A stretch of DNA of 64,000 nucleotides, taken from Anaerolineae bacterium. GTDB taxonomy: Bacteria; Chloroflexota; Anaerolineae; Epilineales; JAHCIE01. The notes beneath the pieces were generated by a model. The model saw only the letters and a list, made by a program, of their open reading frames with translations. It ran no database searches and had not been told where the DNA came from. The DNA lies in contig JAXLWK010000004.1 in NCBI GenBank assembly GCA_046328525.1, forward strand, positions 212,221-276,220. The letters run 5' to 3'. The translations under genes were made by a program, and so were the position numbers. This document shows, piece by piece, positions 45,186 to 64,000 of this stretch (its first letter is position 1; every line of letters begins with the position of its first letter).

Positions 45186-48028
45186 TGCCCGATACGACAA
45201 ACACGCCGTTCGATCCGCCCCTGCCAGGCGACTGGGCCAGGGGCATTGACGTGGCGGTCTGGCAGCAGGGGCTGGACTGGGCCGCCATCGCCCAGGCCGG
45301 CTTCGGGTTCGCCTTCGTCAAAGCCACGGAGGGTGACGACTACACCGACCCCGCCTTCGCCGGCCACTGGCAGGCCGCCCGCGACCACGGCCTGCTGCGC
45401 GGCGCGTATCACTTCTTCTGGCCGGAAGACGACCACGAGAAGCAGGCGCGGCTGTTCGTCGAGACGGTCAAGCAGCTCGAAAGCGACGACCTGCCACCGA
45501 TCATAGATGTCGAGGCGCGGCCCAAAGCGCCGCCGTTCCCCAACGAGCAGTGGGTTGACGGCGTGCGCACCTGGCTCGACATCGTGGAGAATGGGCTGGG
45601 CCGCCGCCCCATGATCTACACCAGCCCCGGTGAGTGGGCGCACCTGCGCGATGGCTCCGGCCTGCCGCCGACCTGGACGGCGCGCTATCCGCTGTGGGTC
45701 GCCCACTGGGACACGGCGCAGCCCGCCCTGCCGGACGGCTGGGACAACTGGTTCTTCTGGCAGTACAAGGCCGACAGCGTGCCCGGCTTCAGCCGCGCCG
45801 TGGACTACGATGTCTTTCGCGGCTCGCGGGACGATCTGCGCCGCTGGCTGACCGGATCGGCGAGCGGCCCGGCGCTGACCGCCACAGCCGCCGCCGCCCC
45901 GACGCGCCCGTCCTTCCCGCTGCGGGTCAGCTACATCAATCAGATCGAGTCCGATGGCAGCGGGCACGACAACTGCGGCCCCTGCTGCCTCACCATGGCC
46001 CTCTCGTCCATCGGGCAGGTCGCGGCGGCAGCCGAGTCGTCGCTGCGCGATATCATGCACCGGGTGTCGGCCGAGCTGAAGGGGACCGACTGGAGCACGC
46101 CGGTCTTCACCGACTTCGACGGCATGGGGCGTTACCTGGACGGGCGACGCATCGCCCACCGCGCCCTCCGCACCTGGCAGAGCGTGGAGCAGACGCTCGA
46201 CGCCGGCCAGCCCGTGATCCTGCGGCTGTGGAACGGCGCGCTGGAGCCGTATGCCTACGGCGCGGGGCCTGGCTGGGTGTCCAAACACTTCATCGTCCTG
46301 CTCGGCTACACCGACACCGCCTACTACGCCGCCGACCCGCTGACCTTCCCGCGCCGCGACCTGGTGCAGTACACGCGCGACAGTGTGCGCCGCGCCGTCG
46401 CCCGGGTGCGCAGCGATGCGGGGCTGTCGTTCGAGGTGGACGCCTTCGTCGTCGGCGATCCGCCGTCCGTCGCGCCGACCCCCGGCCCGATGCTGATAGA
46501 CCCCATCGATTCCGCCATCAGCGATGCCCAGCTTCAGGCCTATCTGGAGCAGTACCTCAAGAAGCAGGGGCAGAGCCTCAACATGGACAGCGCCATCATG
46601 CGCGCGGCTGCCCTGGCCTATCGGCGCGGGGAGACGCGCGGCCCGGCCCTGTCGCTGGAATACAACGTCAAGCTCGACAGCGGCCAGATTGTGTCACGCC
46701 AGGATTTCACGGCGAGCGTCGCGCAGCGCGACCCGCAGACGAACCAGGTCACCTGGCTGGAGGTCGTCCTCCACCCGGACGAGCTGAAGCGCGAACACCT
46801 GGCCGAGACCCTGGACGGACGAGCGGCCGAGCCGGAGGTCCCGTTCCCCACGCGGGCGGCGGGCTTTGTTCGCCGCGAGAACGGCGAGCTGCGCCTGGAT
46901 GGGCAGCCGTTCAAGTTCGTCGGCGTCAACACGCGGGAGCTTCTTCACTATGGCAATCACGCCATCGTTCCGCAGAACTGCAACGAGGAACAGATCGGGC
47001 AGCAGCTCGACGCCGCGCGCCTGATGAAGGCCAGCGTCGCCCGCGTTTTCCTGGCCCACCGCGCCTATGACCCCGCCTCCCTGGCGGCCGAGGTGGGCGA
47101 CCGGCTGGCCGCCGCCCTGGACATCGCCTGCGGGCCGGTGGACAACCTGCGGCCGGACGCGGTCCGCCTCCTCGTCGCCTTCACCGACTACAACAGCGGC
47201 CGCGGCTACTACCCGCGCCAGGACGAGCCGTTCTTCAACCCGGCCGGCTTCCTCGAAGGGGCCGACTGGTACAACGGCCAGTGGCGCGCCAACTACTGGC
47301 CGTTGGTCGAGGCCATCGTGGGCCGCTTCAAGAACGACCCGCGCATCTTCGCCTGGGAGGTGGGCAACGAGCTGAAGCTACCGGCCGACCCCGAAACCTT
47401 CCTCGGCTTCATGACTCTCGTCACGTCGGAGATCAAGAAGCTGGACCCGAACCACCTCGTCGGCGCGGGCATCATCAGCACGCTCCACTGCGCCTTCGAC
47501 GACGTGCAGGCGGGCCGCTTCTATGCTAACCCCAACCTCGACTTCGCCACGCTCCACCTGGCCGGGAGCGGCGCAGACTACCCGCATCTTCCCCCGCTGG
47601 CCGAGTTCGCCGACAATCCGGATGAGGGGCGGCGGCGGGCGTATCTCGCCCACGAGCTCGCCCTGGCCGGAGCGACCGCCAAGCCGCTCATCGTCGAGGA
47701 GGCGGGCTACCTGCCGCCGGAGATGCCGCGGCTGGAAGACCTGGCGACGTATGCGTTCACGGCGGGCGCTGTCGGCTTCCTACCGTGGGGCTTCTCCGGC
47801 TTCCCCGACCAGAAAGACCGCGATGTCGGCGACAACAGGTTTGGCCTCGGCAACTTCCCGCCGCACTTCGACGCTGGTCTGTTCGACCAGGTGATCCACG
47901 GGCTGGCCGCCCTCGTGATGGGCCAGTTCGCGCCGGGCGGTGACCGGGGAACCCTGTCGCCCCCGCCGAAGAAGCCCGGGCGGCGGCGCTCCACCCGCAA
48001 GGCCCCGCCCAAGCCCCCCAAAGGCTGA
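45186..48028 (+). CDS. Multi-domain cell-wall hydrolase/lysin: GH25 muramidase, C39-like peptidase domain and GH5-like TIM-barrel glycosidase domain
   Basis: MPDTTNTPFD... GIDVAVWQQGLDWAAIAQAGFGFAFVKATEGDDYTDPAFAGHW...GAYHFF...WFFWQYKADSVPG..VDYDVFRG (GH25 signature). ...SYINQIESDGSGHDNCGPCCLTMALSSIGQ (Peptidase_C39_2-like). ...FKFVGVNTRELLHYG...RIFAWEVGNELK (GH5-like NE motif). The track ORF start 44990 over-extends. Confidence 0.7.
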
Positions 48029-48045
48029 GACAACCCAAGATCGTG

Positions 48046-48077
48046 ATAGCCGTGTGACGTTCGCGTGACACGGCTAT
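48046..48077. promoter_or_regulatory. Perfect 13-bp inverted repeat (operator or terminator candidate) between the lysin and the tail cluster
   Basis: atagccgtgtgacgttcgcgtgacacggctat followed by gttattatgggcac (a -10-like tattat). Confidence 0.4.
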
Positions 48078-62083: not shown

Positions 62084-62093
62084 GGAGTAACGC

Positions 62094-62567
62094 ATGGCCC
62101 CGCTTCCCGCGCGTTTTGGAACCGATCTGCATCTCATGCGCAACCTCGACCTGACCCACACGAGCCGCGACCCAGGCAACGACCTGGCGACGCGGCGGCG
62201 GCCCGGCGCCACAGGCCAGGACCTGGATCTCCTGTCCGGAGCCGACAACCTGGTGCAGGCGCTCCTGATGCGGTTCCTCACGCCCCTGGGCGAACTGGAC
62301 GCCCTCGGCCACCCGGAGTACGGCTCGCGCCTGTTCGACCTCATCGGCGAGCTAAACAACGACACGACGCGCAACCGCGCCAAGCTCTACGTCCTCCAGG
62401 CCCTCGCCGCCGAGCCGCGCGTCCAGACCGTCCTCTCGGTGCGCGTCACCCAGAACCGGACGAAGCCGACCCAGATGGACATTGACATTTCCCTGCGGGC
62501 GGTGGACAGCGACACCCCGCTCAACCTGGTCTTTCCGTTCTTCCTGGAAAGGGGGCGGACACCGTGA
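62094..62567 (+). CDS. Baseplate wedge protein, GPW/gp25 family
   Basis: SD AAGGAG. ...NLVQALLMRFLTPLGELDALGHPEYGSRLFDLIGE...AKLYVLQALAAEPRVQTVLSVRV (the conserved gp25 core). Confidence 0.7.
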   Translation: MAPLPARFGTDLHLMRNLDLTHTSRDPGNDLATRRRPGATGQDLDLLSGADNLVQALLMRFLTPLGELDALGHPEYGSRLFDLIGELNNDTTRNRAKLYVLQALAAEPRVQTVLSVRVTQNRTKPTQMDIDISLRAVDSDTPLNLVFPFFLERGRTP

Positions 62568-64000
62568 ACGGCGCAACCCTGAACCTCATCGAGCGGCCCT
62601 ACGCCGAGGTCGTGGACGACATCCTGACGGCCATCGTCGGCGGCGTGGTCAACGAGCCGATCTTCTTCGACCTCAAAGAGGACAGCTACCGCCTGTCTCA
62701 ACCGGCCAGCGACGTGCGCTCCATCACCGGCGCGCGCACCCCGCCCGGCGCGGCGGACGCGCAGCACGTCGCGTTCCAGAAGGGGCAGGACTTCGACTTC
62801 GACAGCGTCGCCAACACGGTCATCTGGCGGCCGAAGGGCGCGCACCCCGACGACGAGACGACGTTCTACGTGGACTACTTCCTGCGCGACGCCAACCCGC
62901 CGCTGACCGACATCAACGTCGGCAGCGTGACGCGCACCCTCAGCGAGGCCATCAGCGTCGAGATCGCCACGGTCTACCAGCAGATTAACCAGGCCTACCT
63001 GGCCGGGTTCATTGACACCGCGGCCGGCAAGTCCCTGGACCTGGTCGTGTCCATCCTCGGTGTGACGCGCAAGACGGCCGAGTACGCCCAGGGCCTGGCG
63101 ACGTTCTACCGCGACCCGGCGGTGCAGGGCGTCGTCACCATCGCCGAGGGCCTGAGCCTGAGCACCGACAAGGGCGTGACCTTCGTCACCAGCGAGCTGC
63201 GCACCATGCAGCGCGGCCAGGTGCGCATTGACGTGCCCATCCGCGCGACGGACGCCTCGAAGGGGCCGCTCGGCCAGGTCGGGCCGAACACCATCACCAC
63301 CCTGGCGCAGCCGCTGGCCGGCATCGGCCGCGTGACCAACCTCGAAGCGACCCAACTCGGCGCGGAGGCCGAAACCGACGAGCAACTGCGCGCCCGCGCC
63401 CGCGCCGTCCTGCGCGGCCTGGGCAAGGCGACCCTGGCGGCGCTCATCCAGGCGCTGTTCGATGCCCGCGCCAACCTGCTCGAAGTCTGGGACCCCAACG
63501 GTCCACCCGGCAAGACCCCGCCCGCCGCCGGCATGGTGACGCTGCTCATTGACACGCCGCCGGAGCGGTTCGCCGACGCCCAGGGCCGTGTCGAGGAGAC
63601 GCGGGCGGCCGGCGTCCAGGCGACCCTCGTCGCCAAGTACATTTTCTTCCGGCCGCGCCTCGTCATCCGCGCCACCCGCGACCTGACGCCCGACGGCAAG
63701 CTCAAGCTGGTCGGCCAGGTGGTCGAGGCGCTGGGCGGCGTGGCCGACACGCTGACGGCCGGCCAGCCAGCGAAGGGCAAGGAGCTGCTCGACGCGGTCA
63801 AGAAAGTACCGGACGTGGCGGGCGACGGCGCGAACGCCCCGCGCTTCGTGGACGTGATGGCCTGGCAGTCCGACATCGGCCAGCCGGCCGCCGCAACGCT
63901 CGTCAATGCCCTCGTGGACGCCGTCGCCGCGACGCCCACCGACGCGGACGCCCTGCGCGCCGCCTTCACCCGCATCGTGAACGACAGCGGGCCGGTCGCC
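62564..64000 (+). CDS. Baseplate J-like (gpJ/gp6) protein, 3' end beyond the window
   Basis: GTG start overlapping the gp25 stop (GTGA). VNGATLNLIERPYAEVVDDILTAIVGGVVNEPIFFD... ...GPNTITTLAQPLAGIGRVTNLEATQLGAEAETDEQLRARARAVL are typical Baseplate_J motifs. Confidence 0.7.
   Translation, partial: MNGATLNLIERPYAEVVDDILTAIVGGVVNEPIFFDLKEDSYRLSQPASDVRSITGARTPPGAADAQHVAFQKGQDFDFDSVANTVIWRPKGAHPDDETTFYVDYFLRDANPPLTDINVGSVTRTLSEAISVEIATVYQQINQAYLAGFIDTAAGKSLDLVVSILGVTRKTAEYAQGLATFYRDPAVQGVVTIAEGLSLSTDKGVTFVTSELRTMQRGQVRIDVPIRATDASKGPLGQVGPNTITTLAQPLAGIGRVTNLEATQLGAEAETDEQLRARARAVLRGLGKATLAALIQALFDARANLLEVWDPNGPPGKTPPAAGMVTLLIDTPPERFADAQGRVEETRAAGVQATLVAKYIFFRPRLVIRATRDLTPDGKLKLVGQVVEALGGVADTLTAGQPAKGKELLDAVKKVPDVAGDGANAPRFVDVMAWQSDIGQPAAATLVNALVDAVAATPTDADALRAAFTRIVNDSGPVA

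Follow-up and report, generated by a model that had tools for sequence, protein, structure and literature searches.

A chromosomal head-less contractile tail cluster with a putative cargo-bearing tube initiator in an Anaerolineae genome

We have identified a contractile-tail gene cluster of ~27 kb that recurs in ~8 bacterial phyla and one archaeal MAG, and that begins within a 64,000-nucleotide stretch of DNA (the window) from an Anaerolineae genome. The sequences establish its parts list and gene order, the lack of head genes and of an AAA+ ATPase, and the conservation of the whole cluster across these lineages. We found no published description of this multi-phylum head-less tail family. We read the locus as a tailocin/CIS variant with a cargo-bearing tube initiator: it probably specifies a chromosomal, head-less contractile particle with a Mu-type simple baseplate.

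Methods

Genes on the forward (+) strand, to which all features below belong unless otherwise stated, were called by GC3 frame analysis and HMM scans (Pfam, NCBIfam and PHROG). Head genes were sought upstream with Pfam in the 20 largest of the ~30 upstream ORFs of the window. Nine upstream contexts were compared (the window and relatives L021, L023, L026 and L028-L032). The window stops inside the J gene, and what lies beyond it was taken from L002-L004, relatives that are 87-91% identical.

Results and discussion

The co-directional contractile-tail operon runs from 48.2 kb onward, with a regulator and a three-domain lysin lying 5' of it. The tight spacing with many ATGA/GTGA overlaps that the initial annotation described holds for five start/stop overlaps (ATGA at 52347; GTGA at 53582, 60748 and 62564; 8 nt at 55213) and fails at two loose spacings, of 425 nt ahead of the sheath gene and 193 nt ahead of the gene for the tip protein. 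A mechanically listed long ORF at 48392-49774 was discarded as an off-frame artefact.

The regulator is of the SARP family (43873..44913; Pfam BTAD 3e-23, Trans_reg_C 3e-5) and probably activates the cluster in this clade. A homologous regulator occupies the same position in L028 (80% identity) and L029 (33% identity), and the other relatives have different regulators or none. The actinomycete-like setting suggested by a SARP regulator is misleading: the DNA comes from an Anaerolineae (Chloroflexota) MAG. The lysin (45185..48028, its start corrected from 45186) joins a GH25 muramidase (Pfam Glyco_hydro_25 4e-41), a C39-like peptidase (Peptidase_C39_2 6e-10) and a GH5 mannosidase-like domain, the last (GH5_mannosidase) taken from the precomputed annotation of an 82%-identical homologue; it has no signal peptide and no hydrophobic segment. 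That the cluster has its own lysin is true of this clade (the window and L028) and not beyond it, the gene being absent from L021 and all other relatives. Between the lysin gene and the conserved cluster lies a gene for a 66-aa soluble protein (48187..48387) that matches nothing in Pfam or NCBIfam and has its only homologue in L028 (89% identity). A holin role was rejected for this protein, which has no membrane helix and a maximum hydropathy of 0.43, and no holin was found in the cluster.

Terminase, portal and capsid genes, which had been reported missing upstream, were indeed not found by Pfam among the 20 largest of the ~30 upstream ORFs. These encode the SARP regulator, FtsW/RodA, GluRS, SerRS, an aldolase, an EamA transporter, an MmeI-type R-M enzyme, GNATs, an ABC ATPase and others.

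Tail and baseplate genes

The conserved cluster opens with a gene for a 363-aa protein of tail-terminator fold (48396..49487), a tail terminator or cap with an extra C-terminal beta domain. The contractile sheath (49913..51355; Pfam Phage_sheath_1 1e-9 and Phage_sheath_1C 8e-9, PHROG 279 2e-43) has 1808 homologues at E<1e-10, mostly 54-69% identical. The tube protein (51368..51877; 43-92% identity in relatives) is assigned from its position 3' of the sheath and a weak Pfam Phage_tube_2 match (0.004), and the tail assembly chaperone-like protein (51883..52350; 67-95% identity) from a weak Pfam Phage_TAC_7 match (6e-4). The Pro/Ala-rich protein that follows (52347..53585; 16% P, 22% A) has no match in Pfam, NCBIfam or PHROG and is a putative tape measure by its position alone, that of Mu gp42; among relatives it ranges from 232 to 516 aa, with only the C-terminal ~70 aa kept across phyla.

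Two paralogs come next, which share a conserved N-domain of ~125 aa (38% identity in alignment) and are assigned as tube-initiator/ripcord proteins by fold and by Pfam DNA_circ_N. Paralog A (53582..54133), a tube-like domain with a short helical tail, is found in every relative covering its position. Paralog B (54594..55220), the second tube initiator, consists of a tube-like domain, a poly-proline linker and an Ig-like domain. The products of 48396, 53582 and 54594 had been regarded as non-canonical, a view that does not survive their assignment to the tail-terminator fold and to the tube-initiator/ripcord fold standard in simple baseplates. The paralogs flank a gene for a 140-aa helical protein (54152..54574; 50-97% identity in relatives) with faint matches to the PHROG 305 tape measure (9e-4), DUF7217 and Baculo_PEP_C. 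It may fill space in the baseplate as a small component or be related to the tape measure. The sister lineage has a long helical protein, to which no link was detectable.

The baseplate hub (gp27/gpD-like; 59675..60751) matches the N-terminal part of NCBIfam VgrG_rel (2e-10) and Pfam E217_GP41 (5e-4). The central spike (gpV/gp5-like; 60748..61557), 66-96% identical across phyla, matches the C-terminal part of VgrG_rel (1e-10) and Pfam Phage_base_V (4e-6). A 110-aa, Gly/Pro-rich protein (61751..62083), with 74% mean identity across phyla, is a spike-tip candidate by position. It had been called PAAR-like, a label that goes back to position only: neither PF05488 nor anything else in Pfam, NCBIfam, PHROG or the PDB matches it, and a true PF05488 PAAR protein in the tip slot of L031 shows no detectable homology to it. 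The sheath initiator or wedge protein 1 (gp25-like; 62094..62567; Pfam GPW_gp25 1e-6, Sheath_initiator 5e-5) precedes wedge protein 2 (Baseplate J-like; 62564..64000, the window end; Pfam Baseplate_J 1e-17), which is 538 aa long when complete, as in L002 (91% identity). HMM matches thus uphold the sheath, hub, spike, gp25 and J genes first proposed, while the tube and chaperone assignments gain weak matches and the PAAR label gains none.

In L002-L004 and remoter relatives, J is followed only by a wedge-like protein of 1000-1650 aa, one or two proteins of ~310 aa and a putative fibre of ~950-1450 aa. We infer that the third wedge protein is the gpI-position giant just beyond the window. An Afp15-like AAA+ ATPase and an Afp16-like cap had been expected downstream. 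In 16 relatives the fetched DNA reaches past J, and none of them has an AAA+ ATPase there; the cap is the upstream gene 48396. It is consequently extremely improbable that the locus is a canonical Afp/PVC-type eCIS with its ATPase, cap and toxins just past the window, even though the cluster is head-less, effector-associated and spread over many phyla and the giant protein described below has a weak eCIS_core (DUF4157) match (E 0.007). The tape measure comes after the chaperone, as in phages, and the NCBIfam and Pfam eCIS models are unmatched at their cut-offs. The architecture is that of a Mu-like simple baseplate, not that of Afp/PVC, and the gene order equals that of the Mu tail module.

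Distribution and boundaries

From gene 48396 on, the cluster is collinear in 19 species-level genomes, with J identity of 52-91%. It opens with the terminator gene in eight of the nine upstream contexts; the exception, L026, belongs to a sister lineage and has no terminator gene before the sheath. The 5' neighbours in relatives are unrelated cellular genes (HerA/NurA, amylase, sigma54 activator, Mla operon, PPDK, CHAT protein, hydantoinase and dioxygenase), and no head genes occur in the flanks of the eight contexts other than the window. At the 3' boundary the cluster stops at the last large gene in the five relatives covering it, with a different neighbour each time. Because the flanks differ from genome to genome and never hold head genes, a head-less particle rather than a prophage is well supported, in keeping with the original view of a phage-tail-like particle locus.

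A decayed Mu-like prophage with the tail module as its sole survivor would explain the Mu-like order and the presence of four related contigs in a viral collection, but we consider it very improbable. The same boundaries recur in unrelated genomes, and none of the nine upstream contexts has head, replication or integrase genes. Every gene is intact and strongly conserved across phyla. Phages offer no close relative, the nearest sheath among those in GenBank reaching only 22-26% identity, and the sole viral-collection contig with upstream DNA carries an amidohydrolase and a dioxygenase there, not head genes.

Cargo protein and exchangeable modules

The 1332-aa cargo, or giant, protein (55213..59211) contains, in order, a conserved core made up of an OmpA-like domain (Pfam OmpA 6e-9), PG_binding_1 (9e-8) and another ~200 aa, then Ig-like repeats, a metzincin-like site (HELGHYLSLEH) and a C-terminal zincin module (HELAH); its Pfam matches to zincin and eCIS_core are weak. 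In most relatives paralog B forms the N-terminus of the cargo protein, which here is a separate ORF overlapping it by 8 nt. Residues 1-410 are conserved (38-59% identity across phyla) and the remainder is variable. Sequence comparison reveals a modular build: the core is fused to zincins in this genome and to arginine deiminase (PAD) or α/β-hydrolase modules among relatives, and other relatives have separate-gene cargo at the same positions (phospholipase D (PLD), subtilases (S8 protease) and RHS-repeat proteins). Proteins with the zincin module span 248-2274 aa and have it at their very C-terminus, in the company of peptidoglycan-binding or -lytic domains (OmpA, PG_binding_1, LysM or SLT).

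Four module types each co-vary across phyla with their own small downstream gene. The gene in the window encodes a 146-aa protein (59225..59665) whose homologues in L002 (84% identity) and L017 (47%) occur only beside the matching zincin module. It has no HMM match (Pfam, NCBIfam, PHROG) and no membrane segment, and is a candidate immunity protein, chaperone or adaptor. Signal peptides are missing from the small partner proteins, although one would expect them if these gave immunity to an enzyme that acts on the cell wall.

The second tube initiator is homologous to Mu gp43 (N protein). That protein initiates the tube as a hexamer, has a LysM module that binds peptidoglycan, and passes into the host along with Mu DNA (PMC11915804). 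The initiator here is associated with a peptidoglycan-binding module and exchangeable enzymes. From the Mu precedent and the cassette pattern we infer that the enzymes borne by the initiator are delivered. The peptidoglycan-binding module may be simply a structural counterpart of the LysM module of many baseplates, and the cargo enzymes may be penetration aids, like phage tail lysins, and not toxins. Accommodating a 1300-aa protein in six copies at the end of the tube would be sterically demanding.

A plain R-type tailocin would puncture and depolarise close relatives. Its giant protein would only belong to the baseplate structure and act as a lysin during penetration, and would not be a delivered toxin. 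Such a particle would likewise be head-less, without an ATPase and phage-like in order, with regulator and lysin adjoining; diffocin and pyocin parts are among the best fold and sequence matches. The peptidoglycan-binding module has a parallel in the LysM module of Mu gp43 and the pyocin baseplate, and the zincin module is found beside peptidoglycan-lytic domains. We nevertheless think this explanation rather unlikely, since arginine deiminase, phospholipase D, α/β-hydrolase and RHS cargo are not penetration enzymes, the modules are swapped together with a cognate small gene like toxin-immunity cassettes, identity of 52-62% over ~8 phyla is unlike that of genus-restricted tailocins, and there is no holin.

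Proposed mechanism

The cargo-bearing particle would comprise the terminator/cap, sheath, tube, chaperone, putative tape measure, two tube-initiator/ripcord paralogs, hub, spike and tip, with gp25, J and the gpI-position giant as wedge proteins, one or two ~310-aa proteins and a putative fibre of ~1100 aa. Signal peptides and membrane helices are absent from every component encoded in the window, and assembly would therefore be cytoplasmic. In this clade, expression probably proceeds via the adjacent SARP regulator, and the GH25/C39/GH5 hydrolase next to it probably lyses the cell to free the particle. This proposed route applies to this clade, since only a few relatives have lysin and regulator beside the cluster.

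The cytoplasmic nature of every component is also compatible with a contractile system that is never released and brings about stress-induced or developmental death of the producer, like the Streptomyces and Roseiflexus systems. Lysis genes are missing in most relatives, filamentous Chloroflexota and cyanobacteria are among the hosts, and intracellular CIS are documented in Chloroflexota (PMC12998442). This account is improbable in our judgement: the documented Streptomyces and Roseiflexus cases belong to eCIS clade IId, a different lineage with Afp-type organisation, whereas the cluster described here has fibre-like genes and peptidoglycan-binding or -lytic cargo, and a lysin adjoins it in this clade.

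For the released, cargo-bearing particle, the fibres would bind the target, the sheath would contract, and tube and spike would be pushed through the envelope. The second tube initiator would sit at the tube tip bearing the peptidoglycan-binding module and exchangeable enzymes, linked covalently in most relatives and encoded here as a separate ORF with the 8-nt overlap. The two zincin-like peptidase domains of this genome would be carried to the wall of the target cell, which they would breach or destroy, and the small downstream gene co-varying with each module may encode that module's immunity protein or loading chaperone.

Intergenic region before the sheath

The 425-nt gap 5' of the sheath gene (49488..49912, no strand assigned) reads as non-coding and hairpin-rich, and has no Rfam match. 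It is possibly an internal promoter, a terminator or a repeat-element insertion. One of its hairpins, a 23-mer, is found again at 11546, and the corresponding gap is shorter in both L021 (51 nt) and L028 (235 nt).

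Results and Discussion

Composition of the cluster

The window has a G+C content of ~68%, and third-position G+C picked out a single coding frame at nearly all of 45-64 kb. A mechanically called ORF at 48392-49774 was discarded as an off-frame artefact, the real gene there being 48396-49487. HMM scans gave clear matches for the sheath, gp25, Baseplate_J, an OB-fold spike and a gp27/VgrG-N-like hub, and weak matches for the tube and chaperone, bearing out most of the tail parts named in the initial annotation; single-sequence searches of the PDB with the sheath and J gave faint matches. 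In the neighboring lysin, GH25 and C39-like domains were found by HMM scan, while the third domain is GH5-mannosidase-like according to the annotation of an 82%-identical homologue. Five start/stop overlaps in the cluster are real, and gaps of 425 nt and 193 nt lie ahead of the sheath gene and the tip gene, respectively. The 20 largest of the ~30 upstream ORFs in the window are cellular genes or unknowns and include no terminase, portal or capsid gene. What had been noticed from the sequence, a head-less contractile-tail gene cluster, is thus confirmed.

Distribution and boundaries

A search with the J fragment, using one genome per species, identified 19 loci. Three are in Anaerolineae/Chloroflexia MAGs at 87-91% identity. 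The remainder, at 52-62%, belong to Proteobacteria, Desulfuromonadales, Acidobacteriota, Ktedonobacteraceae, a Methanotrichaceae MAG and Cyanobacteria, among the last the isolates Phormidesmis priestleyi and Myxacorys almedinensis. Searches at the protein level added Planctomycetota (Gemmata massiliana), Actinomycetota and Longimicrobium, and a sheath search returned 1808 clusters at 90% identity. The cluster family spans about eight phyla and is frequent among metagenomes from soils, mats and sediments, with G. massiliana, M. almedinensis A and P. priestleyi ULC007 as culturable carriers.

The loci are collinear by tblastn. As the window ends inside J, the content after J was read from relatives. 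Every locus reaching that far continues with a 1000-1650-aa protein of repeated ~110-aa domains, followed by one or two ~310-aa proteins and a ~950-1450-aa protein, at which the cluster ends. Minus-strand ORFs downstream of J in the related locus L002 were dismissed as antisense artefacts of a plus-strand gene running off the locus. The first gene beyond the cluster varies by genome (exosortase, PKD protein, PAS protein, LonB-like protease or repeat protein). At the other end, the cluster starts at the homologue of 48396-49487 in eight of nine upstream contexts; the exception is L026, of a more distant sister lineage, in which no terminator gene was seen ahead of the sheath. Upstream neighbors vary as well, and include HerA/NurA with an amylase, a sigma54 activator, a hydantoinase, an ABC transporter, an Mla operon, PPDK, a CHAT protein and a dioxygenase.

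No head genes were found in the window's upstream region or in eight other genomic contexts, and in a set of 50,697 GenBank phages the closest sheath showed 22-26% identity. In a viral-contig collection, a single-sheath query found no relative and a profile query retrieved four contigs, all of the sister lineage and none with head genes; the sole one with upstream DNA carries metabolic genes there. Differing flanks, the lack of head genes in these contexts and the distance of phage sheaths make it well supported that the cluster encodes a head-less particle. A prophage remnant was rejected on the same grounds.

A Mu-type tail plan

The initial annotation regarded 48396-49487 and the paralogs at 53582-54133 (A) and 54594-55220 (B) as being of no recognizable family; fold matches place them instead among the canonical parts of a Mu-type simple baseplate tail. 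The 48396-49487 product matched the terminators of phage 812 (10.0), Lambda (gpU, 9.9) and Mu (8.1), the pyocin collar (7.4), the Anabaena tCIS cap (6.8) and Pvc16 (6.6), with the diffocin collar also among its matches. A cap had been expected downstream; these terminator, collar and cap folds suggest that it is the first gene of the operon. The paralogs have in common a strongly conserved ~125-aa N-domain that matches Pfam DNA_circ_N. The predicted model of B (pLDDT 88) matches tube initiators and ripcords, namely diffocin CD1367 (10.6), Pam3 gp17 (10.4), Pa193 ripcord-1 (9.9), the Mu ‘DNA circularization protein N’ (9.5), pyocin PA0626 (9.2) and the Streptomyces CIS LysM protein (8.9). Fold comparison was effective where PDB searches using profiles of the terminator, tube-initiator, tip, ~310-aa, wedge and fibre families had yielded no informative match.

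Along with the DNA_circ_N tube initiator, we found the tail gene order of Mu and other simple-baseplate myophages (Pam3, E217/Pa193, XM1 and Milano): terminator, sheath, tube, chaperone, tape measure, tube initiator, hub, spike, gp25, J, gpI-position protein and fibre. The two tube-like baseplate paralogs recall ripcord-1 and ripcord-2 of Pa193. As in Mu, the tube-like domain of the tube initiator is followed by a peptidoglycan-binding module, although this is OmpA-like plus PG_binding_1 rather than the LysM of Mu-type proteins. Unlike Mu-like phages, the cluster lacks head, packaging, replication and lysogeny genes, with no portal, terminase, transposase or head gene in the window or the examined relatives, and its sheath is <26% identical to that of any phage. 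Its wedge and fibre proteins are also much larger, and interchangeable enzyme domains add as much as ~1200 aa to its tube initiator.

In the Pro/Ala-rich putative tape measure (52347-53585), which varies from 232 to 516 aa, the last ~70 residues alone are conserved. In the sister lineage (L024-L027 and L029; 43-47% sheath identity) there is only one tube-initiator gene, and the next gene encodes an all-helical, apolipoprotein-like protein of ~1140-1206 aa, possibly the true tape measure; between this protein and the hub, L026, L027 and L029 have an RHS-repeat protein. We considered the cluster's 140-aa helical protein as a short form of the sister lineage's ~1150-aa helical protein, but similarity between the two was not significant and the idea was dropped. 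The tip protein (61751-62083), initially described as PAAR-like, has no Pfam, NCBIfam or PDB match and falls short of the PAAR_motif model (PF05488); with the true PAAR that occupies the same slot in L031, hhalign gave a probability of 1.5% and homology was not detected. PAAR membership is thus not borne out. The wedge-position protein and putative fibre share the repeated ~110-aa domain (L002:11619-16490 and L020:15642-19217), which weakly matches the phage-sheath protruding domain and Flagellin_IN, and a similar insert is present in the window's sheath. The tip/gp25 and spike/tip gaps are further insertion hot spots within the cluster. The former holds a family-2 glycosyltransferase in L020 (8490-9317), to which ORFs in the matching place in L019 (8535-9349) are 74-75% identical; the latter holds a ~810-aa gene in two Desulfuromonadales (L008:2356-4779 and L012:6565-9009), encoding in L008 a subtilase with a P-domain.

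The tube initiator as a carrier of exchangeable modules

In most relatives, paralog B and the 1332-aa giant protein encoded downstream of it (55213-59211) are a single polypeptide. Here they are split with an 8-nt overlap at 55213-55220 (CCGGTGGCTGA). This is not a sequencing error, since three related MAGs show it too; L002 and L003/L021 are divided in this way, and two cyanobacteria in a comparable one. The common fused form is ~610-690 aa; in it the tube-like domain is joined by a poly-proline linker to Ig-like and OmpA-like domains, PG_binding_1 and ~200 more conserved residues, an arrangement that mirrors Mu gp43 with a different peptidoglycan-binding module. Mu gp43/N is a hexameric tube initiator whose second domain bears a peptidoglycan-binding LysM module and which, according to earlier genetics, enters the host along with the DNA (PMC11915804).

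Different modules are associated with this core. The window's giant protein has a metzincin-like site (HELGHYLSLEH) and, encoded at 58231-59208, a terminal zincin module (HELAH). The L010, L014 and L030 proteins carry a PAD_M plus PAD arginine deiminase (E ~1e-90), L023 an α/β-hydrolase (a separate ORF in L005) and L020 beta-helix and TIG domains. Separately encoded cargo includes a phospholipase D in L013 and subtilases in L031, L008 and L012; RHS-repeat proteins occur in the sister lineage, and L032 has two large-plus-small gene pairs in tandem. PAD_M and PAD end the tube-initiator/OmpA/PG_binding protein at L010:1100-4912, L014:4-5433 and L030:16557-20342, one of these being in the Methanotrichaceae MAG. 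Animal PADIs have been proposed to derive from cyanobacteria by gene transfer, in a paper that makes no mention of a tail or toxin context for bacterial PADs (PMC8826395).

The terminal module co-varies with the next small gene, giving four module/partner pairs across phyla. The zincin module pairs with the 146-aa family (59225-59665 in the window) here, in L002 and in a locus from Acidobacteriota; another module with a 175/205-aa family in one Chloroflexota and one cyanobacterial locus; PAD with a 201-241-aa family in three phyla; and the α/β-hydrolase with a 115-119-aa family. Thus the C-terminal enzyme varies behind a conserved N-terminal carrier and is exchanged together with its cognate small downstream gene, the combination by which polymorphic toxins are recognized. 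The partners may be chaperones or adaptors; they carry no export signals, which makes simple immunity in the periplasm less likely. In a search of 1.84 billion representative proteins, this terminal zincin module was always the last part of the chain; its carriers range from 248 to 2274 aa and hold OmpA, PG_binding_1, LysM, SLT or subtilase domains. This domain company points to the cell wall as its probable site of action.

Like T6SS evolved effectors (Hcp-ET, evolved VgrG and PAAR-toxin fusions) and polymorphic toxin systems, these proteins join a conserved structural or trafficking N-terminus to an enzyme that varies at the C-terminus, and the small gene matching it lies directly downstream and is exchanged as part of the cassette; RHS-repeat proteins are present in the sister lineage. 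In contrast to T6SS, the carrier is the tube initiator and not Hcp, VgrG or PAAR, and TssB/C, TssJLM and ClpV are missing. A T6SS was rejected given the single phage-type sheath and the lack of membrane proteins and of an ATPase.

Absence of an ATPase and relation to eCIS

An Afp15-like AAA+ ATPase had been predicted just downstream of the window, but it is absent from the cluster and its flanks in relatives. No AAA+ domain was found in the cluster genes of the window, L002, L020-L023 or L028-L032, nor was a conserved ATPase gene found flanking the cluster, as the following genes vary by genome; the LonB-like gene follows the cluster in L012 only, on the opposite strand. Afp15 is present in >85% of Afp/PVC-type eCIS loci (PMC6899500), and the cluster is therefore not to be filed with them. 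The sheath, tube, VgrG-like spike, gp25 and J-like proteins are common to all contractile tails and do not discriminate. The cluster resembles Afp/PVC eCIS (including Streptomyces CISSc, Anabaena tCIS and Roseiflexus CIS) in being head-less, in a putative terminator-fold cap, in its association with diverse toxins and in its horizontal spread in bacteria and archaea. It differs in lacking an Afp15-like ATPase, in gene order and in falling below eCIS HMM cut-offs. Its cargo is fused to or beside a mid-operon baseplate protein, whereas in eCIS the cargo genes follow the structural ones and an N-terminal signal directs loading. Assignment to Afp-type eCIS was rejected on the missing ATPase and the gene order, and a CIS of the Roseiflexus/Streptomyces type was rejected as a different lineage, the Chloroflexota system lately imaged in Roseiflexus being a member of eCIS clade IId.

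Mode of action

Our tentative reading, possible although we would not yet call it probable, is that the clusters form an unclassified, phylum-spanning, ATPase-less class of contractile injection system derived from a Mu-type tail, in which the tube initiator, homologous to the Mu N protein that passes into the host cell, has become the universal carrier of exchangeable enzymatic effectors. Zincins, arginine deiminases and α/β-hydrolases would be fused to it, phospholipase D, subtilases and RHS toxins would be encoded alongside, and several modules would travel with a matching partner gene. The in-window proteins have no signal peptide or membrane helix, which argues for cytoplasmic assembly. 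We favor a released, tailocin-like particle that would take enzymes on its tube initiator to the wall of a target cell, based on the Mu N-protein precedent, the cassette pattern and the domain company of the terminal module.

The main rival is a plain tailocin, in which the enzymes are merely penetration aids. Like R-type tailocins (pyocin R2, diffocin and the Mu-like Pseudomonas Rp tailocins), the cluster is a head-less chromosomal tail cluster with no AAA+ ATPase; diffocin and pyocin parts rank among the best structural matches of its proteins, and in the window's clade a regulator and a cell-wall hydrolase lie alongside. Tailocins are not known, however, to bear cassettes of enzymatic cargo; they have a holin-endolysin cassette and are confined to narrow taxa, in contrast to the roughly eight phyla of this family. 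A SARP regulator adjoins the cluster in three contexts and the GH25-containing lysin in two, the window and L028, with no membrane protein fit to be a holin. Action inside the cytoplasm, like that of the Streptomyces systems, would agree with assembly there, while the module's domain company points to the wall; we consider this mode improbable.

Protein delivery is a goal for which contractile injection systems are now being engineered, and cargo loading is a central open question. If the tentative reading is true, ATPase-free cargo attached to the tube initiator would be a third loading principle, unlike those of eCIS (signal plus ATPase) and T6SS (Hcp/VgrG/PAAR), and would offer a naturally modular scaffold. 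Head-less contractile tails are already known; what looks new is the lineage, the ATPase-less Mu-type plan, the breadth and the cargo arrangement, and full-text literature searches of incomplete coverage returned no description of the lineage or of tube-initiator-borne cargo. Much of the diversity of head-less tails is probably overlooked by searches keyed on Afp15 and Afp16. As the family is common in metagenomes and present in culturable strains, the idea is directly testable.

Other features of the window

Rfam gave no match in 43-64 kb of the window. The gap before the sheath gene (49488-49912) is dense in hairpins and measures 51 nt and 235 nt in close relatives. It contains three tandem ACGCAAAG units opposed by an inverted copy, and a 23-mer (GGGGCAGGTTTGAAACCTGCCCC) with a perfect second copy at 11546-11568, where 0 chance matches are expected; the gap may have arisen by insertion of a repeat element or may be regulatory. 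Unrelated to the tail cluster is a gene for an MmeI-type restriction-modification enzyme (MmeI_N, MmeI_hel and MmeI_Mtase) on the minus strand at 3027-5249. NHL/PA14 and Ig-domain proteins are encoded at 5608-7839 and 8035-10272, and a 1281-aa protein with Chlamydia-PMP repeats at 19256-23101 on the plus strand; these form a patch of large surface-type proteins far upstream of the cluster.
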